Source: Nitrosopumilus sp. (GTDB taxonomy: Archaea; Thermoproteota; Nitrososphaeria; Nitrososphaerales; Nitrosopumilaceae). Taken from it: a stretch of 64,000 bases of DNA. The stretch lies in NCBI GenBank assembly GCA_965203315.1, contig CBDBCE010000004.1, positions 1-64,000 on the forward strand, given 5' to 3'. Of the stretch, positions 12,553-55,478 are shown piece after piece. Under the pieces are notes generated by a model. It saw only the letters and a program-made list of their open reading frames with translations, searched no databases and was not told where the DNA came from. The translations under genes and the position numbers were made by a program. The stretch's first letter is position 1. Each line of letters starts with the position of its first letter.

Positions 12553-12580
12553 TGAACAAATTGTTCATTAGGCTTAAATA
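12553..12580 (+). promoter_or_regulatory. S-layer promoter copy 1 (palindrome TGAACAAATTGTTCA + TTAAATA box), facing the 3' end of its inverted gene
   Basis: Same sequence as found directly upstream of the S-layer ATGs at 36372 and 50345. Confidence 0.85.
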
Positions 12581-12581
12581 C

Positions 12582-12609
12582 AAACTATTGATGTGAATAT
12601 CAATAACAT
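12582..12609 (+). repeat. Putative recombination site, locus 1 left: AAACTATTGAT-GTGAAT-ATCAATAACAT
   Basis: Inverted relative to 17725-17752; one of six homologous sites. Confidence 0.85.
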
Positions 12610-12848: not shown

Positions 12849-15800
12849 CTAGTTTACAGTTATTGTTGTTGTCTGTTGTGGAGATAGTGCAGTTGGTATA
12901 GTCAACGACTCCCATGCAAATACGGTAATTGTGTATTCACCGGATGCTGTTGGTATCCAAGACTGAGATGGACTAAACGACTGAGATGGTGTTAGTGAAC
13001 CATCAATCCAAGACAGAGATACTGTAACGCCATCGCTATCTTGAATTTGTACCAAGTATGCAAATGGCTGGTCTTTGTCTTGTGTGTTTGTCAAATCTGC
13101 AGTGATCTGGACTTGTTGATCTATTGATACTGTACTGAGTGTTGTACCTGTAGAGTCTACTATTCTCAACGACTCGATCTTTACTCGTTCTAGAGGAGGT
13201 ACTATTGTTCCTATTATGGTGGTTGCAGTGATGTCTTCAGAGTCGCCTGTATTGTATGGAGCAGGTAGAGTGTTGTCGCTGTACTTTGCAGTGACTGTGT
13301 CTCCTTCTTCTGTGGATAGTTTGTGACCGCCTGATTGGACAGAGAGTCCAAAGAATACAGTACCTTCAAAGATACCACTTGCTGGTTGAGTCTCTGTTAC
13401 TGTAAGGGTTATTCCACTAGGTGCACTAGAAGACCATACTTTGACCTCAAAGTTGTCTGCAGATTCTGGATTCAAGTTCATGTCGGGATCGATTACACGT
13501 AGTACGCCTGTAGCTGTAGCAGGATAACTTGCTTCTAGCCACTGAACCTCACCAATGTTCCAACGGATTAGAGCAGACTTGCGAACAGTCTCTTCGTCAG
13601 AGAACTCGAATGATACCTCGAGTCCGTCGTCGTTGTCTGTTGGTAATAGTCCATCGGTTGGTCCTTTACAGCTATCACATGTACGACCTGTGACGTCTTT
13701 ACCGTTCTCTCCTGTGGAATCATCACCGTCTGCGTCGTACGAGAATCCTGTCAGTATTACTTCACCTGTAAAGATACCAGTGTTTGTACCTGTCTCTACG
13801 AGTTTGTAGTTTTTAATGTCGTCGGATCTTGTAGCAACACGCACTGGATATGGATCCGCACCAATCTCGTCTACTTGGTTTGTGTTTAGGTTGTGATCAG
13901 GAGCTGTTACAGTAATGAATACCTTGTCGGTCCAACTGTATACGCTTTGATCTAGTTCTATTGTAGCACCAAAGTTTGATGTGAATACCGTTCTGTCGAT
14001 ATCTTCTGTATTATCACCTACAAAGTCTGCACCTGATGGTCCATAGTCGGTGTATTCTAGCTTGATCTCTTCACCACGCTCTAGTCTGTCGTTGTCTATG
14101 GCCTTGGGAACAGATATGACCACTTGGAAGATACCTGTGCTAGGACCAGTCTCTCGTAGAGAACCTGGTTCTGCATCGAATATACCTTCACTCAGATTCT
14201 TGGTACCTGCGTCCGAGTCCCACTTTATCAGATCAAGTGTGTATGTTTCGCGTGTACCGCTGTCTAGATCAAGGTCTGGATCGATGAGTGTTACGATCAT
14301 GTCCGAGCCTATCACATATACAGACTTGTCTGTCTGTAGAGCACCGTTTCGTAGATCAAAGGTAGCAGAGTCTGTGACTGTACGTGGGTTACCAGAAGCA
14401 TCTGTTGTATCGTTGTACTGTACGGTAAGGATATCACCTTGTAGGATGCATGTACGGCTTGTTGTACCGTCAGCTATTGTTCTACTTGGACAGTCACTGC
14501 CACTTGGCCCATCTATGTAAGATAGATCAAAGCTTACTTCGAACACTCCAGATTCAGGAGATGTCTCTGTTAGAGCACCAAACTTTGCTGGCTCTGGACA
14601 TTCACCACCACTATCTCGTGCATTAGTGTACTTTAACTCTGCCAAGAGATATGCTGTCTGTTTCGTTGTCTTTTCAGCGTCTGTAGCATCAGTATATGCC
14701 TGTAGTGCATCATCTCGTATCTGTTTTAACTTGCTGATTGCATCGCTTGCGTTTGAATCTTCGCCACCAGCATGACCTATTGCACACTCGTCACCACTGC
14801 GAGAGATCGTGACCTTTACTGGACCATTTCCGTCCTCGTCTTCGATCTTGTCCTCACCTGTAGGATTCAAGTTGTAATCTGGGTCGTTTACTTGAACATA
14901 GACTTTGACTGTACCTAGTGGAAGAGGTTCAGGAGGATTCTTCATGTCCAAGAATCCTGAAGAGCCTGGGTCTGTATCAGTGCCGTATGGAACTGGATAT
15001 ACAGTTCTATCTAGCGATACAGAGCCTGTACTTGCACCAATCGATGCAGAGTCACCAGCTGTGACTATCTGACCAGATGCATCTCTAAAGTCTAGATATG
15101 TTACGCCAATATCTTTGCCGCTTGTAGGTGTGTTAGGGTTTCTCGTGTTTACTGTATCGTCGTCATTAAAGTTGCATACTTGTTTTGGTATAGAAAATGA
15201 ACCTGTAAAGACTCCTGTACTGGATCCGGTCTCTTGTAGAGTGAATCCGGTTTTAGCGAGTCCGTTCTGAATGTTATTATCTAGGTCACATGCGCCAGAT
15301 TTCCATCTCTCACCACCAATGGTTACTTCGAGTAGCATTCCTAGTGATTTGCCACCTGGTAGTAGAGACTTGTACTTGATACCAGCTACATTGGTTACAC
15401 TCATGCCTACTTGATCTCTATCTGTGTCATTGTGGTTACTGTCCATCACTACCGTATAGGTATCAGCACGATCAGGATCTGTATTCAGATCAGAGTCCTC
15501 TAGTGTGATTACGACATTGCTGCCTACACTGTATGTCTCTGCGTTCAGAGATACCACACCACTAGAGGTTGCGATATCTTGTTGATCAGAGACCACAGCC
15601 ATGTTGCCGTTCGAGTCTATGTCTGCATAGTTTACTCGAGCATCAGAGCCTGTAATGTCCTCAAAGGCGATGAATTTGACTTCGTTGCCTATTGGGGTGA
15701 TGCTTTCGTATATGAAACCAGTTTTGATTAATTGCTTAGCTTCATTTTCAACGAATTGGTCATGTACCATAACATCAAGTTGGTTTACCATAACGTACTC

Positions 15801-17726
15801 TAGCGTTCCTGTAAAGGTGCTGGTGTTCTCGCCAGTCTCTTCTACCTCGACTCGTATAATCTGGTTTGCAACTCTCTCATCTGCTTGTGCACCATCATTA
15901 TAGAACCCATAGGAGAAGAAATCTGAAACTATTGGATATTCCTCGCCTCCTACAAATTTAAAGGGACTTGGGAAGTGTAGTGATAGTAGAAGTGGTGTAT
16001 TATCGTCTACGTTGACTTTATTTGATAGTTCTGCACCGGATATTGAAAAGTATGCACCCATATACCCACCACCACCAGCGGAATGAGCAGCTTGGACACC
16101 CCACGATGTCATGTCTCTGAGGTCATTAGTAAGAGAGTATGGGAAATCATTATTAGTAGAGCCCTTAAGAGATGCACCATAAATCACATTCCTGTCATTG
16201 TCGAGTAAGACAAGAGTGCCATCTATGCCATCTATACCAAAGATACTATAATCATAGTTGAATAGATTGCGACCTGTAAAGTTACCAACGCCGTTAAGCC
16301 CATCGTCATTGATTGATTTACGAAGATCTCCAAAAGTACCGAATGGAATAGCAACCGTGTTGACAGTAGTATTAGTAGCGACTGATATGATACCTCGGTG
16401 ACTATCATCGACGGTGTAATTTAGTACGTATATGCCACTTTGACTGGAATCTGTCGAATATGTTGGAGTGTTAATCGATCCAGTATTGTATCCATAGATT
16501 GTAATTGTATCAGTAGAACTGACACCGTCCTTTAGTGTATGTGGATCACCCGTCATGAATATTGGAATTCTTGCGTCTGGATTGGTTATCGTTTGATCGT
16601 CTTCTGCATCACTGTTGAGGTTTTGATCTGCATCGACTATGGTTAGGTCTATCTTTTCACCAGAGTTCCATGTACCGTCCTTGATATCGAGGTCTACTGT
16701 AGCAGTTGTGAGTCGTACGTTTACAGATACAGTTTCATCACTATACGTGATTTGAGTATTTTGACCGCGTGGTGCATTATCTTGAACCATTATGGGAGAC
16801 TTGTCATCGTTGGTGATGGTAAATACGCCCGTGTTCGGACCAGTCTCTTCAAAGATGTAATTTGTAGTACCCGATTCTAGTTGTAGTAGATCATTAGTGT
16901 CACTAGATCCTATGTCATCTATGCTAAAGCTACACTTGTCATCTTTACAACCAAGATTGGTACTAGTTGGCATGATCGGTCGCTTTTCAGATTCACGAAT
17001 CTTGCTAGAATTATTATCGTACATGTATGTTGGAACACCACCATCTACTGCATATCTCCAGACATCTTTAGTTGTCGGATCTATGTTTAGTATATGGTCA
17101 GTTATCTTTACGTGTACGTGAGAGTTTCTCGGATATGATGTTCTGTCTAGTGTAAGATCATTGTTTACAGAGTCATCATATGTGATCGATATTGTTTGTG
17201 GCGATCCAGCCTTGTGATACACTATGTTAAAGGTATCATCGAGTTCAAAAGACTTTACTATATCAGTGGCGTTTCCAGTCTTCTCGCCAATAGTAATGCC
17301 TGCTTGCCTAACGATATTTTTCACTTTAGGCTGACCATCATCAGTAGAATGCCACAAATTCTGGGCATCGTCAAATGAAGGAGTATTGCCATCAGGATCA
17401 TCAACCGCTCTAAAGTACCCATACCAATTGCCATCAGTGTGTCTATGCATCTTTAGCGTTGTGTCATCAACAGTTACACGAGGCTCAGCATCGTCTGCAT
17501 CACGGATCAACGGATCATTTACAATTACTTGCACTATCTGTAGTCCACCAAAGGTGTTCTCGAACCTAGAGCCATATCCATTTGGATCAGCAGCTGAGAC
17601 GTATAGGTTTGGTGTCGACTGGGCGTAAACTGGCTCCATGCTCGGCATAGCAAAGGTCAGTCCGCCTGCGACCATTATTGTCATTAGTATTAAACTAGTT
17701 GTTTTTCGTCCTATTTCGTTATTCAT
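12849..17726 (-). CDS. S-layer protein paralog 1 (SlaA-like, 1625 aa)
   Basis: Signal peptide MNNEIGRKTTSLILMTIMVAGGLTFA; repeated ETGxNTGxF motifs; C-terminal QSFSPSQSWIPT...FAWES, as in Nitrosopumilus S-layer proteins; true start is the ATG at 17726. Confidence 0.9.
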   Translation of the reverse strand: MNNEIGRKTTSLILMTIMVAGGLTFAMPSMEPVYAQSTPNLYVSAADPNGYGSRFENTFGGLQIVQVIVNDPLIRDADDAEPRVTVDDTTLKMHRHTDGNWYGYFRAVDDPDGNTPSFDDAQNLWHSTDDGQPKVKNIVRQAGITIGEKTGNATDIVKSFELDDTFNIVYHKAGSPQTISITYDDSVNNDLTLDRTSYPRNSHVHVKITDHILNIDPTTKDVWRYAVDGGVPTYMYDNNSSKIRESEKRPIMPTSTNLGCKDDKCSFSIDDIGSSDTNDLLQLESGTTNYIFEETGPNTGVFTITNDDKSPIMVQDNAPRGQNTQITYSDETVSVNVRLTTATVDLDIKDGTWNSGEKIDLTIVDADQNLNSDAEDDQTITNPDARIPIFMTGDPHTLKDGVSSTDTITIYGYNTGSINTPTYSTDSSQSGIYVLNYTVDDSHRGIISVATNTTVNTVAIPFGTFGDLRKSINDDGLNGVGNFTGRNLFNYDYSIFGIDGIDGTLVLLDNDRNVIYGASLKGSTNNDFPYSLTNDLRDMTSWGVQAAHSAGGGGYMGAYFSISGAELSNKVNVDDNTPLLLSLHFPSPFKFVGGEEYPIVSDFFSYGFYNDGAQADERVANQIIRVEVEETGENTSTFTGTLEYVMVNQLDVMVHDQFVENEAKQLIKTGFIYESITPIGNEVKFIAFEDITGSDARVNYADIDSNGNMAVVSDQQDIATSSGVVSLNAETYSVGSNVVITLEDSDLNTDPDRADTYTVVMDSNHNDTDRDQVGMSVTNVAGIKYKSLLPGGKSLGMLLEVTIGGERWKSGACDLDNNIQNGLAKTGFTLQETGSSTGVFTGSFSIPKQVCNFNDDDTVNTRNPNTPTSGKDIGVTYLDFRDASGQIVTAGDSASIGASTGSVSLDRTVYPVPYGTDTDPGSSGFLDMKNPPEPLPLGTVKVYVQVNDPDYNLNPTGEDKIEDEDGNGPVKVTISRSGDECAIGHAGGEDSNASDAISKLKQIRDDALQAYTDATDAEKTTKQTAYLLAELKYTNARDSGGECPEPAKFGALTETSPESGVFEVSFDLSYIDGPSGSDCPSRTIADGTTSRTCILQGDILTVQYNDTTDASGNPRTVTDSATFDLRNGALQTDKSVYVIGSDMIVTLIDPDLDLDSGTRETYTLDLIKWDSDAGTKNLSEGIFDAEPGSLRETGPSTGIFQVVISVPKAIDNDRLERGEEIKLEYTDYGPSGADFVGDNTEDIDRTVFTSNFGATIELDQSVYSWTDKVFITVTAPDHNLNTNQVDEIGADPYPVRVATRSDDIKNYKLVETGTNTGIFTGEVILTGFSYDADGDDSTGENGKDVTGRTCDSCKGPTDGLLPTDNDDGLEVSFEFSDEETVRKSALIRWNIGEVQWLEASYPATATGVLRVIDPDMNLNPESADNFEVKVWSSSAPSGITLTVTETQPASGIFEGTVFFGLSVQSGGHKLSTEEGDTVTAKYSDNTLPAPYNTGDSEDITATTIIGTIVPPLERVKIESLRIVDSTGTTLSTVSIDQQVQITADLTNTQDKDQPFAYLVQIQDSDGVTVSLSWIDGSLTPSQSFSPSQSWIPTASGEYTITVFAWESLTIPTALSPQQTTTITVN

Positions 17727-17752
17727 GTTATTGATATTCCAATCAATAATTT
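17725..17752 (-). repeat. Putative recombination site, locus 1 right: AAATTATTGAT-TGGAAT-ATCAATAACAT
   Basis: Overlaps the start codon; followed on + by gcaaat, like the right flank of locus 3. Confidence 0.85.
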
Positions 17753-22476: not shown

Positions 22477-22979
22477 CATAATTACACACATACTATTCTA
22501 CAATCTATTTGGAAAATACTTTCACACTTTGGTATATTACAAGGTTCCATTGTTTTCTAGTCATAAAATTAAGTGGTTAGACATCCCATATACTTGAACG
22601 TCAAAAATCACTTCTTCTGTATTCCGAGATGTCTGTTGCATGCCAACGTCACCACTTTACCATATTCGTATCATTTTTAACTGATCCCAGCGTCTAGGTT
22701 ACTGCTCGAGTTGTTAGCTTTAGCATTCTGGATGGCTCTTTTAGATGAATTTTTGGTGAATTGACAGTTAGGATTTGCACGAAAACATGTGGATTAGAGT
22801 CACCGCATACAGTTTTGTGCTTTACGGCCAAAGCATTCTGAATATTCATGGCATAAAGATCATATCTGATATAGAGAGCATTGACCGTGACCAAACACAT
22901 TTCGTATAATTCATTCGTATCAAAGATACGGATCAAAGAGTAGAGATTATTAAATATATATTCTAAAATCTATTAGATA

Positions 22980-24626: not shown

Positions 24627-24698
24627 CCTCTTTTTCTTTATTTCCAAACAATCTAGTCTAACAATAGTTGAATTTATGATCGCTATCGATCGTTAACA

Positions 24699-25061
24699 AT
24701 GAAACATGATGCAATATCTGATCGGCTCTTTATGTCTTATGTGGCTTGGCAAGATTTGATGCGATTCTCAAAGATACATGTCAAGAGGATCTACGATTTA
24801 TGTGAGATGGAATGGTTACAGAAAAAGCACCGCAAGATTCTGTGGGGGAAATTACAGAAAAAGCCTTGCGAAATACAATCTTGCATAAATCGAAGAGATC
24901 CAATGTCTTATTACCTAGATCGATACACCGGTAAACCATGCTCTATTAGATCTGTCAGCAAAATCTGTGCCGTGAGGAGATGGCAAATGTTCAATTATCG
25001 AGATTTTGACTATGATCTAGATATGTTAAGCCATTGTGGCATGTTTGGGACTGATCTTTGA
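24699..25061 (+). CDS. Hypothetical protein
   Basis: 120-aa ATG ORF; no recognised motif. Confidence 0.4.
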   Translation: MKHDAISDRLFMSYVAWQDLMRFSKIHVKRIYDLCEMEWLQKKHRKILWGKLQKKPCEIQSCINRRDPMSYYLDRYTGKPCSIRSVSKICAVRRWQMFNYRDFDYDLDMLSHCGMFGTDL

Positions 25062-25252
25062 TAGAATGGCCTGTTTTGTACAAGTCGATATGACACCGTA
25101 CGTGAATGAGAAATGTATTAAATAACCTCGCTCATACCTGCCATTAAAGTCATGACTTGTAACAATCTTTACCTTGATCGTACAAAAACCATATCAGATC
25201 GTTGTCCAAAAATCCTAAATAACGTTCAGATTGCCTCATGGCTAGGAACTAG

Positions 25253-25873
25253 ATGATGAGTACCGATCCATCAAAACAATCAAGTGACAACTCTGCTAGA
25301 TCTGATAAAGCAGAACCTCCTAAACCAGCTACACCACCCAAACCCACGACAGTCGCAAAACCCACATCAGAGCCTGAACTACCGGCATTTGAGAAAGGAA
25401 TCTCTGACAAGTTGGTAGCCAAGTTTGGAGACAAGATCGAGATTGCATTTGTTAAACCGGATCGAATCCGTGTAAATGTAGATCGATCAAATATTCACAC
25501 TGTCGCAGAGTTTATTCGTGACGCTTTAAACTACGATCATGTCGAGTCTGTAACCGGTGTTGATCTGCCTAAAGAGAAAGCAATCGAGGTTGTATATCAT
25601 ATCGGTTCGTATACGGATCCGTCACTTGCAAGACAACTACTAGTACTCGTAACTAGAGCACAACGTGAAGAGAATCCGATACCTGGAAATGACGCAACTA
25701 GACTACCTAGCCTTAGAGATATATTTTACAGTGTAGAATTTCACGAGAGAGAGGTCTTTGAGATGTTGGGAGTTTTCTTTGAAGGACATCCAGATAATCG
25801 ACGGCTATTGTTGCCTGAAGATTGGGCAGATCTGCCACCACTTCGAAAGGACTTTGCCATAAAGGGAAGATAG
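25253..25873 (+). CDS. nuoC: NADH-quinone oxidoreductase subunit C
   Basis: HEREVFEMLGVFFEGHPDNRRLLLPEDW..PPLRKD. Confidence 0.95.
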   Translation: MMSTDPSKQSSDNSARSDKAEPPKPATPPKPTTVAKPTSEPELPAFEKGISDKLVAKFGDKIEIAFVKPDRIRVNVDRSNIHTVAEFIRDALNYDHVESVTGVDLPKEKAIEVVYHIGSYTDPSLARQLLVLVTRAQREENPIPGNDATRLPSLRDIFYSVEFHEREVFEMLGVFFEGHPDNRRLLLPEDWADLPPLRKDFAIKGR

Positions 25874-34873: not shown

Positions 34874-34985
34874 GGATACAATTTTTTGATTCATCTGTAA
34901 TTACACTTCACAAGACTTTTTCACTACTAAATTCTCATAGTACTTTTTCTGTAAAAATTCCATCAGGTGTAAATCAAAGAGATCC
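34874..34985. repeat. MITE-like dispersed repeat, copy B
   Basis: Shares ttcacaagact, ttttctgtaa and gtaaatcaaagagatcc with copy A. Confidence 0.5.
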
Positions 34986-35058
34986 TTTGATAGTGATTAT
35001 GTCACGTTGGCAGATTCAGTTCTTGAGATACTAAAACATTCACCTATGCGATTCAAAT

Positions 35059-36315: not shown

Positions 36316-36344
36316 ATGAACAAATTGTTCATTAGGGTTAAATA
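36316..36344 (+). promoter_or_regulatory. S-layer promoter copy 2 (palindrome ATGAACAAATTGTTCAT + TTAAATA)
   Basis: TTAAATA at -34..-28 from the ATG, consistent with a leaderless transcript. Confidence 0.85.
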
Positions 36345-36345
36345 C

Positions 36346-36379
36346 AAACTCTTGATGAGATTATCAATAACATGAATAA
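36346..36379 (+). repeat. Recombination site/IR, locus 2 left (spacer GAGATT)
   Basis: Perfect 34-bp inverted repeat of 41532-41565. Confidence 0.92.
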
Positions 36380-39300
36380 CGAAATAGGACGAAAAACAAC
36401 TAGTTTAATACTAATGACAATAATGGTCGCAGGCGGACTGACCTTTGCTATACCAAGCATGGAGCCAGTCTATGCCCAGTCGACACCAAACTTGTACGTG
36501 TCAGCTGTTAGTGAAAAGTTTGACAACACCTTTGGCGGACTCCAAATTATAGAGGTCGTTGTATCTGATCCGCTAATAACTGATGAGGGAGATGCAGCTC
36601 CCAGAGTTACTGTTGATGACGAAGATCTCCCAATGCATCATGCTGGAGACGGCTCGTGGTATGGTTGGTTTATGGATAAAGACAGAGACGCCAATGATGA
36701 TGGCGACGTTCTCGATATAGTTGAGGGAGATTATGACTATGCAAATAAATTATCCGAGTTTAAACAACTTAATTTCCCAGAAAATAGAGGCAATACAGCA
36801 AAGATAGCACCAGAATTTCTATACCTTGATCTTGACTATGGTGAAGAGATCGACGTAGTGTATAACAAAGCTGGAAACCCTCAAACGGTAACACTCACAT
36901 ACGACAAATCTAAAAACAACTCTATCGAACTTGATCGGGACTTTTACACACCTGGCGCAGAGGTACATGTTACAATTACTGACCATGTACTCAATATAGA
37001 TCCAACTAGCAAAGATGTCTGGCAGTTTCCTACGATCGACAGCACTAGTAGTACATACCCTTGGATGAAAGTAGGTGAAGCCATGGGAAGATTGAAACTA
37101 AATCCAGAGACAAATTATGTTGGCATGTATGCAACACAACTCGGTTGTGACGATGATTGTGCTCTTAGAATTCCGGTAGGTACTACAGAGAATGTAATAA
37201 CGTTTGTACCATCATCTTATACTGTAGCCGAGAATTATTTCACAAATGCGGTTCTATTCATCGAAACTGGACCAAACACTGGTGTCTTTGAGTTGATTAG
37301 TGATCGCAAGGACGCGAACGACAATCCAGCTAATAAGATAATGATCAAATCAGATGCACCACGAAACACCAATACGCAGATTATATACGATCAGGATAAC
37401 GTAGCCGTAAACGTACGACTAACTGCTGCTACAGTAAACCTAGATATCGAGGACGGCACGTGGAACTCTGGCGAAAAGATAGACCTAACCGTAGTCGATG
37501 CAGATCAAAACAAAGACAGTGATGCAGAAGACGATCAAAAGGTATCTGATCCCATGTCAAGAATTCCTACATTCATCACCGGCGATCCGCATACACTAAT
37601 GGACAGTAAAGACAAGTCTGCACATACATATACGCAGGCAGGTTCCACTTGGCAGAAATATCCAATAGATCCAAATGATCGGATATACGTACGTGACTTA
37701 GATTTTAGAGTCGATGATAGTCATAGGGGAATACTGTCGTGGAATGGTTCAAATAATGTTCGCGATAAAGAACCGCTTGCACTTGCAGGAGTACATAGCA
37801 GCTTTGTTGGAGGGTTGTTTACTATTCCTTTAGGTACGCTAGGTGAACTACGTGAATCAATCCATGATGATCACACCACTAGGGGAGATTTTACAGGACG
37901 GAATCTATTCAACTATGACTTTAGCGTCTTCGATACAAACAACATACGTGTTGATCTAAACATACACAACAGTACAGGAGATGTAGTTTACTTTGAAACG
38001 CTGCTAGATAATAGCGACAGTAGACTCTCCGCGTATGATGTCACCTCTGGTATTAGAGATATAACCGGCTTTATGGTCAAAGATAGAAACAACGAGACTC
38101 TGACATATTCACTATCTAGTTCTGAATTTCTATCAAAGGTCGGTACTGACGCTCAAGTCACACTGGAAATAATACTCAAAGACGGAAATGCCTACACCAC
38201 ACCAGCATTTACTATCACCGAAGGCAAAGAATATCCCATAGTCGCAGATTTCTTCTCATATGGATTCTATGACGATGGCGCACAAGCAGGCGAGAGAGTT
38301 GCAAACCAAATCATACGAGTCGAGGTAGAAGAGACCGGTGACAACACTAGTACCTTTACAGGAACACTAGAGTACATCATGATAAACCAGCTTGATATGA
38401 TAGTGACTGATACTCTAGTAACTGGTGCTAATGTGACTGTAAATGGCAATCAATTACCATCATATCCAAGAACAGATTACATATTCGACAGCATTACACC
38501 AATAGGCAACGAAGTAAAATTCATCGCCTTTGAAGACATCACAGGCTCTGACGCGCGAGTAAACTATGCAGACATAGACTCGAACGGCAACATGGCTGTG
38601 GTCTCTGACCAACAAGATATCGCAACCTCTAGTGGTGTGGTATCTCTGAATGCAGAGACATACAGTGTAGGCAGCAATGTCGTAATAACACTAGAAGACG
38701 CAGACTTGAATACAGATCCTGATCGTGCAGATACCTATACCGTAGTGATGGACAGTACCAACATGGATCCAGATAGAGATCAAGTAGGCATGAATGTAAC
38801 CAATGTATCTGGCATCGAGTACGAATCTCTACTGCCAGGCGACAAATCACTAGGAATGCTCCTAGAGGTGACCATTGGTGGCGAGAGATGGAAATCCGGA
38901 TGTACACCTAGTATTAGTGGACTTGGTGCAACAGGATTTACTCTACAAGAGACAGGATCCAGCACAGGAGTCTTTACAGGTTCATTTGCTATACCAAAAG
39001 ATGTATGCATGGATAACAAGAAAGTAGGCGTAAGCGGCAAAGACATTGGTGTAACATATCTAGACTTTAGAGATGCATCTGGTCAGATAGTCACTGCTGG
39101 TGACTCTGCATCGATTGGTGCAAGTACAGGCTCTGTATCTCTAGATAGAACTGTATATCCAGTTCCGTATGGTCAGGGTACAACAACTGGTTCAAGAGCC
39201 CTAGACATGGCCGGAGCAAATCTTGCAGGCGGTACAGTCAAAGTCTATGTTCAAGTAAACGATCCAGATTACAACTTGAATCCTACAGGTGAGGACAAGA

Positions 39301-41276
39301 TCGAAGACGAGGACGGAAATGGTCCAGTAAAGGTCACGATCTCCCGCAGTGGTGACGAGTGTCTAATAGGTCACGCAGGCGGTGAGACATCAATCGCAAC
39401 CGACGAGATCAGTAGATTGTTAGAAGATCGAAATACAAAGAAAGCTAGCTATGATGCAGACAAGACAAACACTGACAAACAGACAGCATATCTCTTGGCA
39501 CAACTAAAGTATGATGATGCTAGAAGTACAGGTGGTGCATGTCCGGTTCCAGAACCGTTTGGTGCTCTAACGGAGACATCTCCTGAATCAGGAGTGTTCG
39601 AAGTAAGCTTTGATCTATCTTACAAGATAGGACCAAGCAGTACCGACTGTCCAGCTACTGGAGATAGCCGTACATGTATCCTACAGGGGGATATCCTCAC
39701 CGTACAGTACAACGACACTACAGATGCTTCTGGTAATCCACGTACAGTCACAGACTCTGCTACCTTTGATCTACGAAACGGTGCTCTACAGACAGACAAG
39801 TCTGTATACGTTATAGGCTCGGACATGATCGTAACACTCATCGATCCAGACCTTGATCTAGACAGCGGTACACGCGAAACATACACACTTGATCTAATAA
39901 AGTGGGACTCGGACGCAGGTACCAAGAATCTGAGTGAAGGTATATTCGATGCAGAACCAGGTTCTCTACGAGAGACTGGTCCTAGCACAGGCATATTCCA
40001 AGTGGTCATATCTGTTCCCAAGGCCATAGACAACGACAGACTAGAACGAGGCGAAGAGATCAAGCTAGAATACACCGACTATGGACCATCAGGTGCAGAC
40101 TATGTAGGTGATAATACAGAAGATATCGACAGAACGGTATTCACATCAAACTTTGGTGCTACAATAGAACTAGATCAAAGTGTATACAGTTGGACCGACA
40201 AGGTATTCATCACTGTAACAGCTCCTGATCACAACCTAAACACAAACCAAGTAGACGAGATTGGTGCTGATCCATATCCAGTGCGTGTTGCTACAAGATC
40301 CGACGACATTAAAAACTACAAACTCGTAGAGACAGGTACAAACACTGGTATCTTTACAGGTGAAGTAATACTGACAGGATTCTCGTACGACGCAGACGGT
40401 GATGATTCCACAGGAGAAAACGGTAAAGACGTCACAGGTCGTACATGTGATAGATGTAATGGACCAACCGATGGACTATTACCAACAGACAACGACGACG
40501 GACTCGAGGTATCATTCGAGTTCTCTGACGACGAGACTGTACGCAAGTCTGCTCTAATCCGTTGGAACATTGGTGAAGTTCAGTGGCTAGAAGCAAGTTA
40601 TCCTGCTACAGCTACAGGCGTACTACGTGTAATCGATCCCGACATGAACTTGAATCCAGAATCTGCAGACAACTTTGAGGTCAAAGTATGGTCTTCTAGT
40701 GCACCTAGTGGAATAACCCTTACAGTAACAGAGACTCAACCAGCAAGTGGTATCTTTGAAGGTACTGTATTCTTTGGACTCTCTGTCCAATCAGGCGGTC
40801 ACAAACTATCCACAGAAGAAGGAGACACAGTCACTGCAAAGTACAGCGACAACACTCTACCTGCTCCATACAGTAAAGGCGACTCTGAAGACATCACTGC
40901 AACCACCATAATAGGAACAATAGTACCTCCTCTAGAACGAGTAAAGATCGAGTCGTTGAGAATAGTAGACTCTACAGGTACAACACTCAGTACGGTATCA
41001 ATAGATCAACAAGTCCAGATCACTGCAGATTTGACAAACACACAAGACAAAGACCAGCCATTTGCATACTTGGTACAAATTCAAGATAGCGATGGCGTAA
41101 CTGTATCTCTGTCTTGGATTGATGGTTCATTGACACCATCTCAATCGTTTAGTCCATCTCAGTCTTGGATACCAACAGCGCCAGGCGAATACACAATCAC
41201 CGTATTTGCATGGGAGTCGTTGACTATACCAACTGCACTATCTCCACAACAGACAACAACAATAACTGTAAACTAG
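36372..41276 (+). CDS. S-layer protein paralog 2 (SlaA-like, 1634 aa)
   Basis: Same signal peptide and near-identical C-terminal third as paralogs 1 and 3. Confidence 0.9.
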   Translation: MNNEIGRKTTSLILMTIMVAGGLTFAIPSMEPVYAQSTPNLYVSAVSEKFDNTFGGLQIIEVVVSDPLITDEGDAAPRVTVDDEDLPMHHAGDGSWYGWFMDKDRDANDDGDVLDIVEGDYDYANKLSEFKQLNFPENRGNTAKIAPEFLYLDLDYGEEIDVVYNKAGNPQTVTLTYDKSKNNSIELDRDFYTPGAEVHVTITDHVLNIDPTSKDVWQFPTIDSTSSTYPWMKVGEAMGRLKLNPETNYVGMYATQLGCDDDCALRIPVGTTENVITFVPSSYTVAENYFTNAVLFIETGPNTGVFELISDRKDANDNPANKIMIKSDAPRNTNTQIIYDQDNVAVNVRLTAATVNLDIEDGTWNSGEKIDLTVVDADQNKDSDAEDDQKVSDPMSRIPTFITGDPHTLMDSKDKSAHTYTQAGSTWQKYPIDPNDRIYVRDLDFRVDDSHRGILSWNGSNNVRDKEPLALAGVHSSFVGGLFTIPLGTLGELRESIHDDHTTRGDFTGRNLFNYDFSVFDTNNIRVDLNIHNSTGDVVYFETLLDNSDSRLSAYDVTSGIRDITGFMVKDRNNETLTYSLSSSEFLSKVGTDAQVTLEIILKDGNAYTTPAFTITEGKEYPIVADFFSYGFYDDGAQAGERVANQIIRVEVEETGDNTSTFTGTLEYIMINQLDMIVTDTLVTGANVTVNGNQLPSYPRTDYIFDSITPIGNEVKFIAFEDITGSDARVNYADIDSNGNMAVVSDQQDIATSSGVVSLNAETYSVGSNVVITLEDADLNTDPDRADTYTVVMDSTNMDPDRDQVGMNVTNVSGIEYESLLPGDKSLGMLLEVTIGGERWKSGCTPSISGLGATGFTLQETGSSTGVFTGSFAIPKDVCMDNKKVGVSGKDIGVTYLDFRDASGQIVTAGDSASIGASTGSVSLDRTVYPVPYGQGTTTGSRALDMAGANLAGGTVKVYVQVNDPDYNLNPTGEDKIEDEDGNGPVKVTISRSGDECLIGHAGGETSIATDEISRLLEDRNTKKASYDADKTNTDKQTAYLLAQLKYDDARSTGGACPVPEPFGALTETSPESGVFEVSFDLSYKIGPSSTDCPATGDSRTCILQGDILTVQYNDTTDASGNPRTVTDSATFDLRNGALQTDKSVYVIGSDMIVTLIDPDLDLDSGTRETYTLDLIKWDSDAGTKNLSEGIFDAEPGSLRETGPSTGIFQVVISVPKAIDNDRLERGEEIKLEYTDYGPSGADYVGDNTEDIDRTVFTSNFGATIELDQSVYSWTDKVFITVTAPDHNLNTNQVDEIGADPYPVRVATRSDDIKNYKLVETGTNTGIFTGEVILTGFSYDADGDDSTGENGKDVTGRTCDRCNGPTDGLLPTDNDDGLEVSFEFSDDETVRKSALIRWNIGEVQWLEASYPATATGVLRVIDPDMNLNPESADNFEVKVWSSSAPSGITLTVTETQPASGIFEGTVFFGLSVQSGGHKLSTEEGDTVTAKYSDNTLPAPYSKGDSEDITATTIIGTIVPPLERVKIESLRIVDSTGTTLSTVSIDQQVQITADLTNTQDKDQPFAYLVQIQDSDGVTVSLSWIDGSLTPSQSFSPSQSWIPTAPGEYTITVFAWESLTIPTALSPQQTTTITVN

Positions 41277-41284
41277 TTCAAACC

Positions 41285-41302
41285 TTCTTTTTTTCTTTTT
41301 TT
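41285..41302 (+). terminator. Oligo-T terminator of S-layer gene 2
   Basis: ttctttttttcttttttt just after the stop codon. Confidence 0.7.
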
Positions 41303-41531
41303 ATATGATATAATAATGCACAGTAATAGCTGCATATGGTAAAGATAACAGTAACCGTATGTGATAGTACTACATACATCACGTTATAATACAATGATCT
41401 CTACTCTTACATTATACAATACTGCTCATTCACAAGATACTTGATATGAGAGATCTGAACTTGGTGTGTGGTCAATAGACTATAAACATCATGCTAAACT
41501 TTGCACAGGCACATTGCACAGCCTGTACCAA

Positions 41532-41565
41532 TTATTCATGTTATTGATAATCTCATCAAGAGTTT
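41532..41565 (-). repeat. Recombination site/IR, locus 2 right
   Basis: Reverse complement is AAACTCTTGATGAGATTATCAATAACATGAATAA, identical to 36346-36379. Confidence 0.92.
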
Positions 41566-42374: not shown

Positions 42375-42448
42375 GGGCCCGTAACTCAGCTTGGTAGAGT
42401 GGCCGGCTCATAACCGGCAAGCCAAGGGATCGAAGCCCTTCGGGCCCA
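42375..42448 (+). tRNA. tRNA with CAT anticodon, probably tRNA-Ile2 (agmatidine-modified)
   Basis: Cloverleaf GGGCCCG...CGGGCCCA; GCCGG-CTCATAA-CCGGC; acceptor stem is Ile-type rather than initiator Met. Confidence 0.85.
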
Positions 42449-42603
42449 CTTTCAATTAGTTTTAAAACTATAACGTATCGTTGTACGATGGCTGCGATGA
42501 AGAATCAGAGTTATATCTGACCGTATGATGTAAAGGCATTTGTCTGAGCTGCCTCCATTCATATCACGCTTGATTTATTTTGGAACAAAAGTGGTAATAT
42601 ACG

Positions 42604-50287: not shown

Positions 50288-50317
50288 AATGAACAAATTG
50301 TTCATTAGGCTTAAATA
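50288..50317 (+). promoter_or_regulatory. S-layer promoter copy 3 (palindrome AATGAACAAATTGTTCATT + TTAAATA)
   Basis: Same spacing to ATG as copy 2. Confidence 0.85.
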
Positions 50318-50318
50318 C

Positions 50319-50346
50319 AAACTCTTGATGGGAATATCAATAACAT
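50319..50346 (+). repeat. Recombination site, locus 3 left: AAACTCTTGAT-GGGAAT-ATCAATAACAT
   Basis: Inverted relative to 55451-55478. Confidence 0.85.
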
Positions 50347-53300
50347 GAATAACGAAATAGGACGAAAAACAACTAGTTTAATACTAATGACGATAATGGT
50401 CGCAGGCGGACTGACCTTTGCTATACCAAGCATGGAGCCAGTCTATGCCCAGTCGACACCAAACCTATACGTCTCAGCTGCTGATCCAAATGGATACGGA
50501 GCTAGATTCGACAACACCTTTGGTGGACTACAAGTTGTCGAAGTCATTGTAAATGATCCATTACTAACTGATTCAAATGATGCCATGCCTCGTGTTACAA
50601 TAAACGATGACATAAAGCTCAACATGACACAAGCTGGTGATGGATCTTGGTATGGATACTTTGCAGATAAAGGGCGTGATGGTAACGGTGATGATGATGA
50701 CACAGACATTACCGGATATTTCCTCAATACCGCAACTGTACAACTAGCACTAGATGGCGAACTTAATTATGATGGCCTATATGGTAGCAGTGAAGACTCT
50801 GCGCGGTTCACAGGTGTGGGTGGTTTCACAGACGATAACTTGGTCAATAATTCTCCCTCAAAGCGAGGTTCAACAGCTAAAATACTATCTGATGATGGTA
50901 ATCAAATAAAGTATCTTGATCTTGATGATGGTGACGATGTAAAGATCGTATACCAAAAGGCAGGAAACCCACAAACTGTAACCTTGACATATGACAAATC
51001 AAAGAACAATGGAATTGAACTTGACAGAAACTCGTACGCAAGAGACGCAAATGTGTACATTACTCTCACAGATCACGTACTAAACGTAGACCCAACATCT
51101 AAAGACTTTTGGCAGTTCTTTCTTGATGAAAATTCGCCTTCTGCACCGGCACATCAGCTTTTTCCAGATGATAGAGTAGTATTAGCAACTAGCAATCTAA
51201 ATGCTGCTGTTAATGGTTTCACCCATGCTCAACTTGGTTGTGACGATAACGATTGTGTGTTATCGATACCAAATGATAGCATACTTCGACTAGACGATGA
51301 TGATGACGCTACAAACAATCCCAACAATATTACCTTTGAAGAAACTGGACCAAATACCGGTGTATTTGAGATAAGAGACGATGATGGCGATACATCAATA
51401 ATGGTTGACGACAATGCGCCGAGGGGACAAAATAGTGTTATCACTTATTCTGGTAACAATGTAGCCGTAAACGTACGACTAACTACAGCTACTGTAGATC
51501 TAGATGTATCGGACGGCACATGGAACTCTGGCGAAAAGATCGATCTAACCATAGTCGATGCAGATCAAAACAAAGACAGTGATGCAGAAGACGATCAAAT
51601 GATCAAGAACCCAAATGCAAGAATTCCAACAATGATCATAGGTGATCCATACACACTAGCCGATGAGCGTACTCCACATCGTGGCAACACATACCCTACA
51701 TTCTTCTTGGATCGACCCACCGCTTATATTGTTGAAACATTTACGACAATCACTGGTGGCAAGTCACCCATCGAAACATCTTTGACGATAGATAATGATC
51801 ATCGACTGGGTCAAATACCGGCCAACAATACAGTACCTGACTTGACAACTCCGTCTAATGGCATAACTGCCAACATGTGGTTGTCTCTTGGATCCCTTTC
51901 TGACCATCAAGCAGCAATGAGTCTACAGGATGACTTTGTAGGTGTAAATCTACTAAACTATGACCTTAGTAGTGTCGGTGCTAACAAGTACTGGCTCGCA
52001 ATATATCCTAACTATGCTGTTCCTACTGGCACCAATCTCCCTTACTACGCTGAGAGATATTATGCAGAGTTGGAAGCTGATGGAAGAGGTGTATTTGATC
52101 TGTCAACCGATATGACGCACTTTGCAGCCAACAACAATACCAAGGTGACAGCAACAAATGCAAATCTACCCGTGCGTTTCGAAATGGCAATCCTTGCAGA
52201 ATTTACAAGTACATTTGATGTAAGCAAGACATATCCAATAGCTGTAGATATCTTTAGCATTGGATTCACGGGTGACGGCGCACAGGCCTCTGAACGTATC
52301 AACAATCAGATAATACGAATCGAGGTAGAAGAGACCGGTGACAACACCAGCACCTTTACAGGAACACTAGAGTACATCATGATAAACCAACTAAACGTAA
52401 ACAATGCAGATACATACAAAGACATCACTCCAATAGGCAACGAAGTCAAATTCATCGCCTTTGAGGATATGACAGGCTCTGACGCGCGAGTAAACTATGC
52501 CGACATTAACTCGAACGGCAACAATGCTACAGTCTCCGACCAACAAGATATCGCAACCTCTAGTGGTGTGGTATCTCTAAACGCAGAGACATACAGTGTA
52601 GGCAGCAATGTCGTAATCACACTAGAAGACTCTGATCTAAATACAGATCCTGATCGAGCAGATACCTATACTGTCGTAACACGAAACATGACTGGTGGAA
52701 CCACGAACATTGGTAAGGACATGGACCAAGTGGGTATCGATGTCATGTCCAAGTATGAGACTCTACTACCAGGTAAGAAATCACTAGGAATGCTACTCGA
52801 AGTAACCTTTGATGGTAAGAGATGGCAATCTGGCTGTACTCTGTCTGACGGAGTTCAGAACGGACTCGGCGAAACAGGATTCACTCTACAAGAGACCGGA
52901 TCCAGTACAGGAGTCTTTACAGGTTCATTTTCTGTACCAAAAGAGGTATGCATGGGATCTGACAAACTATCTGTAAGCGGCAAAGACATTGGTGTAACAT
53001 ATCTAGACTTTAGAGATGCATCTGGTCAGATAGTTACAGCGGGCGACTCTGCATCGATTGGTGCAAGTACAGGCTCTGTATCTCTAGATAGAACTGTATA
53101 TCCAGTCCCATATGGTCAGGGTACAGCAGGTTCTTCTAGAGCCCTAGACATGGCCGGAGCAAATCTTGCAGGCGGTACAGTCAAAGTCTATGTTCAAGTA
53201 AACGATCCAGACTACAACTTGAATCCTACAGGCGAGGACAAGATCGAAGACGAGGACGGAAATGGTCCAGTAAAGGTCACGATCTCACGCAGTGGTGACG

Positions 53301-55210
53301 AGTGTCTAATAGGTAATGCAGGCGGTACTAGATCAGTTGCAACCGATGAGATCAGTAGATTGATGCAAGATCGAGATACAAAGAGAGATCTCTATAATGC
53401 AGACAAGACAAACACCGACAAACAGACAGCATATCTCTTGGCACAACTAAAGTATGATAATGCTAGAAGTACCGGCGGTGCATGTCCAGAGCCAGAACCG
53501 TTTGGTGCTCTAACAGAGACATCTCCTGAATCAGGAGTGTTCGAAGTAAGCTTTGATTTGTCTCACAGTATAGGACCAAGCAGTACTGACTGTCCAAATG
53601 ATGGTAACTGTATCCTACAAGGTGACATACTCACCGTACAGTACAACGACACAACAGATGCTTCTGGTAACCAACGCACAGTCACAGACTCTGCTACCTT
53701 TGATCTACGAAACGGCGCTCTACAGACAGACAAGTCTGTATATGTTATAGGCTCGGACATGATCGTAACACTCATCGATCCAGACCTTGATCTAGACAGC
53801 GGTACACGCGAAACATACACACTTGATCTGATCAAGTGGGACTCGGACGCAGGTACCAAGAATCTGAGTGAAGGTATATTCGATGCAGAACCAGGCTCTC
53901 TACGAGAGACTGGTCCTAGCACAGGCATATTCCAAGTGGTCATATCTGTTCCCAAGGCCATAGACAACGACAGACTAGAACGTGGTGAAGAGATCAAGCT
54001 AGAATACACCGACTATGGACCATCAGGTGCAGACTATGTAGGTGATAATACAGAAGATATCGACAGAACAGTATTCACATCAAACTTTGGTGCTACAATA
54101 GAACTAGATCAGAGCGTATACAGTTGGACCGACAAGGTATTCATCACTGTAACAGCTCCTGATCACAACCTAAACACAAACCAAGTAGACGAGATTGGTG
54201 CGGATCCATATCCAGTGCGTGTTGCTACAAGATCCGACGACATTAAAAACTACAAACTCGTAGAGACAGGTACAAACACTGGTATCTTTACAGGTGAAGT
54301 AATACTGACAGGATTCTCGTACGACGCAGACGGTGATGATTCCACAGGAGAAAACGGTAAAGACGTCACAGGTCGTACATGTGATAGATGTAACGGACCA
54401 ACCGATGGACTATTACCAACAGATAACGACGACGGACTCGAGGTATCATTCGAGTTCTCTGACGATGAGACTGTTCGCAAGTCTGCTCTAATCCGTTGGA
54501 ACATTGGTGAGGTTCAGTGGCTAGAGGCAAGTTATCCTGCTACCGCTACAGGCGTACTACGTGTAATCGATCCAGACATGAACTTGAATCCAGAATCTGC
54601 AGACAACTTTGAGGTCAAAGTATGGTCTTCTAGTGCACCTAGTGGAATAACACTTACAGTAACAGAGACTCAGCCAGCAAGTGGTATCTTTGAAGGTACT
54701 GTATTCTTTGGACTCTCTGTCCAATCAGGTGGTCACAAACTATCCACAGAAGAAGGAGACACAGTCACTGCAAAGTACAGTGACAACACTCTACCTGCTC
54801 CGTACAATACAGGCGACTCTGAAGACATCACTGCAACCACTATAATAGGAACAATAGTACCTCCTCTAGAACGAGTAAAGATCGAGTCATTGAGAATAGT
54901 AGACTCTACAGGTACAACACTCAGTACAGTATCAATAGATCAACAAGTCCAGATCACTGCAGATTTGACAAACACGCAAGACAAAGACCAGCCATTTGCA
55001 TACTTGGTACAAATTCAAGATAGCGATGGTGTTACAGTATCTCTGTCTTGGATTGATGGTTCACTAACACCATCTCAGTCGTTTAGTCCATCTCAGTCTT
55101 GGATACCAACAGCATCCGGTGAATACACAATTACCGTATTTGCATGGGAGTCGTTGACTATACCAACTGCACTATCTCCACAACAGACAACAACAATAAC
55201 TGTAAACTAG
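50345..55210 (+). CDS. S-layer protein paralog 3 (SlaA-like, 1621 aa)
   Basis: As for paralogs 1 and 2. Confidence 0.9.
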   Translation: MNNEIGRKTTSLILMTIMVAGGLTFAIPSMEPVYAQSTPNLYVSAADPNGYGARFDNTFGGLQVVEVIVNDPLLTDSNDAMPRVTINDDIKLNMTQAGDGSWYGYFADKGRDGNGDDDDTDITGYFLNTATVQLALDGELNYDGLYGSSEDSARFTGVGGFTDDNLVNNSPSKRGSTAKILSDDGNQIKYLDLDDGDDVKIVYQKAGNPQTVTLTYDKSKNNGIELDRNSYARDANVYITLTDHVLNVDPTSKDFWQFFLDENSPSAPAHQLFPDDRVVLATSNLNAAVNGFTHAQLGCDDNDCVLSIPNDSILRLDDDDDATNNPNNITFEETGPNTGVFEIRDDDGDTSIMVDDNAPRGQNSVITYSGNNVAVNVRLTTATVDLDVSDGTWNSGEKIDLTIVDADQNKDSDAEDDQMIKNPNARIPTMIIGDPYTLADERTPHRGNTYPTFFLDRPTAYIVETFTTITGGKSPIETSLTIDNDHRLGQIPANNTVPDLTTPSNGITANMWLSLGSLSDHQAAMSLQDDFVGVNLLNYDLSSVGANKYWLAIYPNYAVPTGTNLPYYAERYYAELEADGRGVFDLSTDMTHFAANNNTKVTATNANLPVRFEMAILAEFTSTFDVSKTYPIAVDIFSIGFTGDGAQASERINNQIIRIEVEETGDNTSTFTGTLEYIMINQLNVNNADTYKDITPIGNEVKFIAFEDMTGSDARVNYADINSNGNNATVSDQQDIATSSGVVSLNAETYSVGSNVVITLEDSDLNTDPDRADTYTVVTRNMTGGTTNIGKDMDQVGIDVMSKYETLLPGKKSLGMLLEVTFDGKRWQSGCTLSDGVQNGLGETGFTLQETGSSTGVFTGSFSVPKEVCMGSDKLSVSGKDIGVTYLDFRDASGQIVTAGDSASIGASTGSVSLDRTVYPVPYGQGTAGSSRALDMAGANLAGGTVKVYVQVNDPDYNLNPTGEDKIEDEDGNGPVKVTISRSGDECLIGNAGGTRSVATDEISRLMQDRDTKRDLYNADKTNTDKQTAYLLAQLKYDNARSTGGACPEPEPFGALTETSPESGVFEVSFDLSHSIGPSSTDCPNDGNCILQGDILTVQYNDTTDASGNQRTVTDSATFDLRNGALQTDKSVYVIGSDMIVTLIDPDLDLDSGTRETYTLDLIKWDSDAGTKNLSEGIFDAEPGSLRETGPSTGIFQVVISVPKAIDNDRLERGEEIKLEYTDYGPSGADYVGDNTEDIDRTVFTSNFGATIELDQSVYSWTDKVFITVTAPDHNLNTNQVDEIGADPYPVRVATRSDDIKNYKLVETGTNTGIFTGEVILTGFSYDADGDDSTGENGKDVTGRTCDRCNGPTDGLLPTDNDDGLEVSFEFSDDETVRKSALIRWNIGEVQWLEASYPATATGVLRVIDPDMNLNPESADNFEVKVWSSSAPSGITLTVTETQPASGIFEGTVFFGLSVQSGGHKLSTEEGDTVTAKYSDNTLPAPYNTGDSEDITATTIIGTIVPPLERVKIESLRIVDSTGTTLSTVSIDQQVQITADLTNTQDKDQPFAYLVQIQDSDGVTVSLSWIDGSLTPSQSFSPSQSWIPTASGEYTITVFAWESLTIPTALSPQQTTTITVN

Positions 55211-55450: not shown

Positions 55451-55478
55451 ATGTTATTGATATTACCATCAATAGTTT
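55451..55478 (-). repeat. Recombination site, locus 3 right: AAACTATTGAT-GGTAAT-ATCAATAACAT
   Basis: Reverse complement of atgttattgatattaccatcaatagttt. Confidence 0.85.

Follow-up and report, generated by a model that had tools for sequence, protein, structure and literature searches.

A 64-kb stretch of the genome of Nitrosopumilus sp. (assembly GCA_965203315.1, contig CBDBCE010000004.1, positions 1 to 64,000 of the forward strand; hereafter the window) carries three paralogous genes that encode surface layer (S-layer) proteins, and each of these 4.9-kb genes is enclosed by a pair of short inverted sites with the core TTGAT-N6-ATCAA. The six sites make up three inverted pairs, with partners about 5.1 kb apart. 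The sites probably serve for crossover in a system of site-specific inversion in which entire S-layer genes flip while their promoters stay in place, a reading that is suggested by locus 1, where the cassette is turned round between its two sites. The features of the three loci are as follows, with ON and OFF denoting the predicted state of each gene and lengths given in nucleotides (nt) and amino acids (aa).

12553..12581, + strand: fixed promoter of locus 1, outside the putative invertible segment, with the TGAACAAATTGTTCA palindrome, TTAGGC and the TATA-like TTAAATA; member of a direct-repeat family and homologous to the promoter of 33 related S-layer genes.
12582..12609 (repeat 12581-12615), + strand: left site of locus 1, spacer GTGAAT, with the promoter half joined to the cassette 3'-end half (predicted OFF junction); identified by core match and inverted repeat.
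12849..17726, - strand: S-layer protein gene of locus 1 (P0004), 1625 aa from its ATG, inverted relative to the promoter; identified as an open reading frame (ORF) and by homology search.
17725..17752 (repeat 17719-17753), - strand: right site of locus 1, spacer TGGAAT, carrying the ATG of the gene and facing a promoterless flank.
36317..36345, + strand: fixed promoter of locus 2, identified by repeat family and promoter-motif search.
36346..36373 (repeat 36346-36379), + strand: left site of locus 2, spacer GAGATT, filling the 26 nt from TATA box to ATG.
36372..41276, + strand: S-layer protein gene of locus 2, 1634 aa, predicted ON orientation; PDB 8c8k match, E = 0.
41538..41565 (repeat 41532-41565), - strand: right site of locus 2, spacer GAGATT, 34/34 identical to the left site.
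50290..50318, + strand: fixed promoter of locus 3, identified by repeat family and promoter-motif search.
50319..50346 (repeat 50318-50352), + strand: left site of locus 3, spacer GGGAAT.
50345..55210, + strand: S-layer protein gene of locus 3 (P0005), 1621 aa, predicted ON orientation; identified by ORF and homology search.
55451..55478 (repeat 55445-55479), - strand: right site of locus 3, spacer GGTAAT, the sole site with a central TA.

Paired sites and the turned cassette of locus 1

The core TTGAT-N6-ATCAA matches exactly six times in the window (starts at 12588, 17731, 36352, 41544, 50325 and 55457), all at cassette ends and nowhere else, compared with a mean of 0.26 matches in 100 dinucleotide-preserving shuffles, none of which gave six. 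When up to two mismatches were allowed, 77 matches were found against 71.6 expected in the window; since the core is not enriched at this threshold, there is no indication of additional degenerate sites. The site at 36346-36373 reads AAACTCTTGATGAGATTATCAATAACAT. In a common orientation, the left arm of all six sites is AAA(C/T)T(A/C)TTGAT and the right arm, ATCAATAACAT, is invariant in all six. The spacers are GTGAAT and TGGAAT at locus 1, GAGATT and GAGATT at locus 2, and GGGAAT and GGTAAT at locus 3, so that partner sites differ at two, zero and one spacer positions, respectively. The central dinucleotide is GA in five sites and TA in the right site of locus 3 only, which makes GA/GA pairs of loci 1 and 2 and a GA/TA pair of locus 3. 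These arms, spacers and central dinucleotides had been given in a preliminary description of the sites, and all were borne out by reading of the window. That description also called the spacers locus-specific, which holds for locus 2, whose GAGATT differs from all other spacers. It does not hold for loci 1 and 3, whose four spacers differ pairwise by 1-2 nt equally within and between loci.

An inverton is expected to be bounded by short inverted copies of one sequence, and such copies were found at all three loci. The repeat common to both ends is longer than the 28-nt site, with identity at 34/34 nt at locus 2, 32/35 nt at locus 3 and 31/35 nt at locus 1. It extends past the ATG into codon 3 and reaches farther to the right of the dyad centre (20 nt) than to the left (14-15 nt). 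The positions that vary among the six sites are 12, 13, 14 and 16 in the spacer and 4 and 6 in the arms. Differences between partner sites within the 28 nt all fall at positions 4, 6, 12, 13 and 14, in the outer half that is retained with the flank, and positions 15-29 are identical between partners in every locus.

Directly before the left site of all three loci, on the + strand, lies a 29-nt block made up of the TGAACAAATTGTTCA palindrome, TTAGG(C/G) and the TATA-like TTAAATA. An 18-nt core of this block, searched with up to three mismatches, occurs only three times in the window, always at a left flank and on the + strand. Loci 2 and 3 have, in the 3' direction, promoter block, site and start codon of the gene. 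What comes after the promoter block and site at locus 1 is the cassette 3' end in reverse complement (12581-12840 is 98% complementary to 55220-55479 of locus 3), and the gene starts at the right-hand site, facing a flank without promoter motif. Judged from these alignments, locus 1 is the same unit as loci 2 and 3, with the cassette alone turned round and the junctions inside the repeat. Both orientations are thus seen across the paralogous loci of one assembly, with locus 1 flipped and loci 2 and 3 not.

The position of the exchange can be narrowed by bases that travel with the cassette, as the preliminary description had proposed. Position 30, the base after the ATG, is A when linked to the gene and T when linked to the 3' end, at loci 1 and 3 and in either orientation. 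Since position 30 travelled with the cassette and the promoter remained outside, the exchange is placed between site positions 1 and 29; the window provides no finer mapping. Position 6 (A/C) was also considered as a crossover marker and was uninformative, being A at both locus 1 sites and C at both locus 2 sites. The term recombination site, used in the same description, agrees with the junctions of locus 1, which have promoter homology on one side and 3'-end homology on the other and fall inside the repeat. Because promoters are present only at left flanks, the locus 1 gene faces away from its promoter and the junctions lie within the repeat, the sites are very probably the crossover points. 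By the same logic, with the promoter motif at left flanks only, orientation would set gene expression. Mis-assembly of the locus 1 orientation is improbable, given that the repeats are only 35 nt long and that the contig spans three near-identical repeats of 1.65 kb, which suggests long reads.

The mechanism that we propose starts from three paralogous 5.1-kb cassettes, each with a 34-35-nt inverted repeat at its ends. The left copy occupies the 26 nt from TATA box to ATG plus the first two codons, and the right copy, about 250 nt after the stop codon, is an inverted duplicate of this leader. Exchange within the repeat would leave the TATA box joined either to the ATG and its gene (ON, loci 2 and 3) or to the non-coding cassette 3' end (OFF, locus 1), with the gene then stranded at the promoterless flank. 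The recognition element is most likely the dyad TTGAT-N6-ATCAA, presumably bound by a dimer, the right half of which was present in the family leader beforehand and the left half of which is new in this lineage.

Terminal inverted repeats of a mobile cassette would also bound a repeated unit, and a transposase such as the IS66-family protein encoded at 20786-22396 could in principle have moved it. Three copies of one unit with short terminal inverted repeats, in a window that contains transposase genes, fit this explanation. We nevertheless regard it as most improbable: homology between loci does not end at the left repeat but takes in a further 29 nt of promoter, where it stops, the flanks have no target-site duplication, and at locus 1 the cassette is inverted whereas the promoter outside the repeat is not.

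Promoter and leader in related S-layer genes

Conservation of the site can be compared with that of the promoter in which its left copy is embedded. Relatives were taken from a single scan of genome contigs, which yielded 49 S-layer homologue loci with 27-63% identity in the best segment; the closest protein relatives (P0003 at 75%, P0006 at 68%, P0008 at 58% and P0009 at 57%) lie outside this set. For the promoter comparison, 12 of the 49 loci were omitted for want of an aligned N-terminus, and of the remaining 37, four (L022, L038, L040 and L046) were misaligned at the ATG and were dropped, leaving 33. All 33 genes follow the same plan of palindrome, TTAGG, TATA box and 26 nt to the ATG, and they align to the window without gaps. 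The region from the promoter to codon 8 is strikingly conserved across these loci, although the proteins are only ~40-60% identical.

Within this shared plan, the parts of the site have different histories. The left AAACT shows a high column match to the window and occurs as an exact 5-mer in 9/33 relatives, CAATAAC precedes the ATG in 31/33, and TCAATAAC is found in 16/33. The outer halves of both 11-nt arms are therefore inherited promoter and leader sequence, being present in 33 related genes that lack the repeats. ATCAA occurs in 4/33 relatives. TTGAT is found at the window's position in none of the 33, and the stretch of the relatives that matches the inner left arm and spacer is A-rich.

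Related loci also differ from the window downstream of the gene. No leader copy was found 3' of the gene in 30 full-length relative loci, three of which gave trivial 13-point matches. Among 41 relative loci of at least 8 kb, inverted repeats gave matches in three, and in none of the 41 do they bracket the gene as in the window; L002 and L038, for instance, have short inverted repeats that are placed otherwise. The core TTGAT-N6-ATCAA is present in 9/49 relative loci (11 matches), never at a gene boundary. The third locus with inverted repeats, L001 (Nitrosopumilus sp. OZ250186.1), has a separate arrangement at 13024-19358, in which two S-layer genes converge tail to tail; their 3' parts share inverted homology of up to 817 nt, and short flanking repeats are absent.

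The absence of the left TTGAT from all 33 relatives, together with the absence of 3' copies, indicates a lineage-specific origin of the dyad and of the 3' copy, both added to an otherwise conserved promoter. From these comparisons, the lineage acquired the left TTGAT, so that the ATCAA already there became half of a dyad, together with a centre that is not A-rich and the inverted 34-nt copy about 250 nt past the stop codon. In archaeal promoters, the TATA box is centred ~26-27 nt before the transcription start. On these general grounds, the transcription start is expected in the right arm, only a few nt 5' of the ATG.

The 15-nt palindrome TGAACAAATTGTTCA of the promoter block lies at 12553-12567, 36317-36331 and 50290-50304, and a GGACAA...TTGTCC-type version is present ~45-60 nt before the ATG in relatives L005-L044. 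It lies a short way upstream of the TATA box in S-layer genes across Nitrosopumilaceae, and is probably the binding site of a conserved regulator.

Two explanations without a dedicated recombinase can be weighed against this ancestry. According to the first, the TTGAT-N6-ATCAA palindrome would be an operator for a transcription factor and nothing else, positioned between TATA box and start codon, with an unrelated rearrangement at locus 1. The site does lie within the core promoter and consists largely of ancestral promoter and leader sequence, and the second palindrome upstream shows that the promoter is regulated. An operator leaves unexplained, however, why an inverted copy stands ~250 nt past the stop codon of all three genes and why the locus 1 junctions fall exactly in the site. 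The explanation is already strained by these two facts, and we consider it very improbable.

According to the second explanation, the repeats would remain from an inverted duplication of the leader, and locus 1 would have flipped once by RadA-dependent or illegitimate recombination. The lack of a recombinase nearby, the imperfect repeats in two of the three loci and the single inverted locus are all compatible with such a history, to which we assign a small probability. It does not readily account for the retention of the same short repeat pair at three separate loci, nor for a lineage-specific dyad made inside a conserved leader (TTGAT in 0/33 relatives), nor for a 3' copy that has no other evident role. 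Moreover, 34 nt is very short for homologous exchange, and no locus contains long inverted homology within itself.

Site geometry and the candidate enzyme

A site-specific inversion system is expected to include a recombinase. The 64-kb window, part of a contig of 341,628 nt, was scanned with Pfam, and no tyrosine recombinase, serine recombinase or IS110-type protein was found among its 35 ORFs of 100 aa or longer, the 7 of unassigned family when E values up to 1 were allowed, 41 of the 57 intergenic stop-to-stop stretches (the other 16 being short or overlapping) and three antisense ORFs inside the cassettes. The only mobile-element genes in the window are the IS66-family transposase (20786-22396) and an isolated helix-turn-helix ORF (10593-10994). 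The latter, 133 aa long and 1.6 kb to the left of locus 1, contains only HTH_32/28/29 domains, the same as the N-terminus of a whole IS630-type transposase in a relative (L043, 23693-24688), and is probably a transposase remnant. A 199-aa ORF without family near locus 3 had no usable match in the protein atlas. In a weak screen of relatives, two crude recombinase motif patterns were applied to 663 ORFs of 49 S-layer loci and gave two matches, one an IS630-type DDE transposase and the other without a family. When promoter and site were compared with phage genomes, a single match at chance level was obtained, to a Bacillus phage (E = 0.1).

The enzyme class can be approached through the sites. 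The preliminary description had read them as an 11-6-11 design of the Xer/dif type. In bacteria and archaea, dif is described as two 11-nt inverted arms around a 6-nt spacer, the edges of which are the cleavage points (PMC8371274, PMC2958812), and the window sites resemble this target, including that of archaeal XerA, in having inverted arms around a 6-nt centre and a 28-nt length that can be parsed as 11-6-11. Arms of Thermococcales dif have few or no mismatches (PMC2958812); this paper, by Cortez, offers no thaumarchaeal dif for comparison and makes no mention of the group. The part of the design that stands is the inner dyad: TTGAT/ATCAA is perfect and the gap exactly 6 nt in all six sites. 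The 11-nt arms themselves pair at only 7/11 (C variant) or 8/11 (A variant) positions, with the symmetry in the inner 5-7 nt. Of the outer six arm positions 2-3 pair, about the level of chance for an AT-rich composition; symmetry is lacking in the outer 4-6 nt of each arm, and these outer bases are ancestral leader. Near-perfect 11-nt inverted arms, as in archaeal dif, are thus not seen, and an alternative 13-8-13 parse, with 8-9/13 pairing, is no worse. In bacterial dif, the inner arm parts are symmetric and the outer parts asymmetric, XerC and XerD differing. Since there are six copies in inverted pairs, whereas dif is single-copy and works in resolution, the sites are not dif itself. Their geometry is compatible with an Xer-like enzyme without identifying one or demonstrating the 11-6-11 parse.

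With these reservations, we lean towards a tyrosine recombinase whose overlap, of 6-8 nt, would have the dyad centre as its midpoint, and give this class about an even chance. The preference follows from the sites, which have symmetric inner arms on either side of a variable and asymmetric 6-nt centre, and from the distribution of the enzymes, those of archaea being mostly of the tyrosine class. If such an enzyme acts with a 6-nt overlap, the mismatches of loci 1 and 3 would be confined to one side of the overlap. For Xer and Cre, a one-sided mismatch in the overlap would hinder one of the two strand exchanges, and not necessarily all recombination.

A serine invertase could run the same switch by cutting the central GA (positions 14-15) with a 2-nt stagger, in which case positions 1-13 would stay with the flanks and positions 16-28 would travel with the cassette. 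This would suit the distribution of within-locus differences described above, which inside the 28 nt are limited to positions 4, 6, 12, 13 and 14 with 15-29 identical per locus, as well as the asymmetric GA centre of five of the six sites, and it would suit the inverted locus 1, which has matching GA centres despite two mismatches in its 6-nt spacers. Loci 1 and 2 would be competent under such a model; locus 3 would be blocked by TA, the T at position 14 of its right site locking it. The preliminary description had expected, for a tyrosine enzyme, free switching of locus 2 and hindrance at loci 1 and 3, and for a serine enzyme a locus 3 that may be locked ON; these predictions are correctly derived from the respective models. 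A shared GA in five sites would in addition leave exchange between loci unrestrained, for example that of 41532-41565 with 50319-50352. The symmetry of the sites lies 4-8 nt from the centre, in contrast to the contacts with the outer parts of half-sites of the hix/gix type. No serine recombinase was found among the ORFs and open stretches scanned in the window, and the class is not known to be common in this archaeal group. Overall, we consider a serine enzyme unlikely.

Comparison with known systems places the arrangement among surface-variation switches, with differences from each. Functionally closest are the Xer-like systems of Mycoplasma and Ureaplasma (Vpma/Xer1 of M. agalactiae and Ureaplasma mba), which are described as switching paralogous surface proteins by site-specific inversion with an Xer-type tyrosine recombinase, not a classical invertase (PMC5634654, PMC3599477). 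In contrast to these bacterial systems, the present one belongs to an archaeon, has its own promoter and a dummy partner site for each gene, involves the whole 4.9-kb gene and has no recombinase nearby. The Mycoplasma and Ureaplasma loci have one expression site for several silent genes and a recombinase gene beside the locus; as here, their repeats are short and lie at gene 5' ends, between the expression signals and the gene body. The hix/gix sites of Hin/Gin are likewise short, imperfect inverted sites that bound an invertible segment controlling a surface protein; their partners share an asymmetric central dinucleotide, as do those of loci 1 and 2 but not those of locus 3. They are 26 nt long (12-2-12), need an enhancer and Fis, and the segment contains the promoter or alternative gene parts, whereas in the window the promoter is outside the segment, and no Resolvase-domain invertase gene was found in or next to it among the ORFs and open stretches scanned, antisense cassette ORFs included. 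Variants of the S-layer are also exchanged by inversion in the sap system of Campylobacter fetus, among paralogues with conserved and variable parts. There the process is RecA-dependent, uses a conserved 5' coding repeat of several hundred nt and flips a promoter-bearing segment, whereas the repeats of the window are 34-35 nt long, contain a dyad core and would flip the gene instead of the promoter. Finally, promoter invertons (fimS, Bacteroides capsule promoters and Clostridioides difficile cwpV) resemble the window in ON/OFF phase variation of surface structures through short inverted repeats (for cwpV, PMC2784873). Such invertons flip a few hundred nt with the promoter or leader, whereas here a static promoter would be combined with the flipping of 5.1 kb including the whole gene, the crossover falling between TATA box and ATG.

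Several points weigh against inversion by a dedicated system. No recombinase gene was found among the ORFs and open stretches scanned in the window. The inversion is deduced from one assembly by comparison of paralogous loci. At loci 1 (31/35) and 3 (32/35) the repeats are imperfect, with mismatches that include the central 6 nt, and decay of the system may be under way. The inverted locus 1 has the most mismatched spacers, which leans slightly away from strict 6-nt identity, although the mismatches could postdate the flip. Conservation of the left site is confounded by promoter function, and the right sites are only modestly better conserved than their neighbourhood, since the 3' ends of loci 1 and 3 (98%) were homogenised recently.

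With these points taken into account, crossover at the six sites remains the explanation that we favour, with a dedicated recombinase presumably acting on them and with switching that would be ongoing and reversible. A fuller reading, which we hold tentatively and at somewhat less than even probability, is that of active, reversible phase variation of the S-layer, in which a recombinase encoded elsewhere in the genome flips the three coat-protein genes independently, the crossover site lies inside the core promoter and the differences in the central 6 nt serve as locus addresses. If so, recombinase and transcription machinery would compete for the same 26 nt, and the addresses would prevent recombination between loci and hence the loss of essential genes, the nuo operon among them. 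With a gene OFF, its strong S-layer promoter would drive antisense transcription into the 3' region common to the three paralogues.

The cassettes, their surroundings and significance

The cassette protein matches chain A of PDB 8c8k, the S-layer (cell surface) protein of N. maritimus, over query residues 141-1633 (E = 0, 1137 bits), and has 1534 homologues, those with names belonging to Nitrosopumilus, Nitrosarchaeum and other Nitrosopumilaceae. Overall identity among the three paralogues is 66.5-70%, with 13-53% in alignment columns ~100-700 and 97-100% over the last ~530 residues. Divergence in columns ~100-700 combined with near-identity at the C-terminus is the pattern that would be expected of alternative coats. 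At the DNA level, the 3' 1.65 kb of the three genes is 97% identical (13200-14473, 39666-41304 and 53586-55234) and the 5' two thirds are far more diverged, which points to gene conversion or to strong constraint on cell-proximal domains. The shared 3' stretch of locus 1 is inverted relative to those of loci 2 and 3, and homologous exchange there could invert large segments of the chromosome. N. maritimus is also reported to have two S-layer paralogues, one of which dominates on cells (PMC11153153).

Just inside the 3'-end-linked site copy of all three cassettes are three direct repeats of a YTGTRCA-like heptamer, ~9-13 nt apart (12616-12650; 41497-41531 and 55411-55444, - strand), a pattern that is retained in locus 2 despite base changes. 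These repeats could form an accessory protein-binding region at one partner site alone. Predicted RNA structure at the start of the OFF-state transcript is no better than in shuffles (z = 0.75, 0.06 and 0.75), and folding of the heptamer region is unremarkable.

An Rfam scan of the window detected one 5S rRNA and one tRNA and nothing further. The tRNA-Met (42375-42449) lies ~800 nt to the right of locus 2 and the 5S rRNA (55938-56057) ~460 nt to the right of locus 3, which places the cassettes among housekeeping genes, with no obvious mobile island. Elsewhere, the nuo operon is split by an insert of ~6 kb (19049-25252) between nuoB (18533-19048) and nuoC (25253-25873). Encoded in the insert are a DUF3800 protein, the IS66-family transposase, a protein of 548 aa whose gene contains 306-nt tandem repeats (two copies, at 23085-23690, are 100% identical), and a 120-aa ORF. 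A repeat element of ~100 nt with the invariant core TTACAGAAAAA is present in four copies, intergenic or at ORF edges (24796-24905; 34936-34989, - strand; 55621-55700; 59181-59291), one of them 140 nt outside the right site of locus 3. At 59495-61159, the N-terminal domain of transketolase and a ribulose-phosphate 3-epimerase domain are found in a single 554-aa ORF, apparently a fused pentose-phosphate gene, which is followed by the C-terminal half of transketolase and by transaldolase.

Bacteria commonly vary their surface by programmed DNA inversion, a process that has hardly been studied in archaea. A long-read survey describes archaeal invertons as 'minimally investigated', and its 42 archaeal datasets are given as 36 Euryarchaeota and 6 Crenarchaeota, with none described as Nitrososphaerota (PMC10028968). 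A full-text literature search retrieved no report of S-layer gene inversion in ammonia-oxidising archaea. The layout of the window is itself unusual, in that the gene rather than the promoter would flip and the crossover site would be carved from the core promoter. Natural polymorphisms at positions 4, 6, 12-14 and 30 make the exchange point, and hence the enzyme class, readable from long reads.

In ammonia-oxidising archaea, the S-layer has been described as an ammonium-concentrating device (PMC11153153). It is also the first part of the cell that a virus contacts. If the cells do switch between coat paralogues with different outer domains, the consequences would extend to the dynamics between virus and host, to how strain heterogeneity in metagenomes is interpreted and to the S-layer structure that the cells carry.

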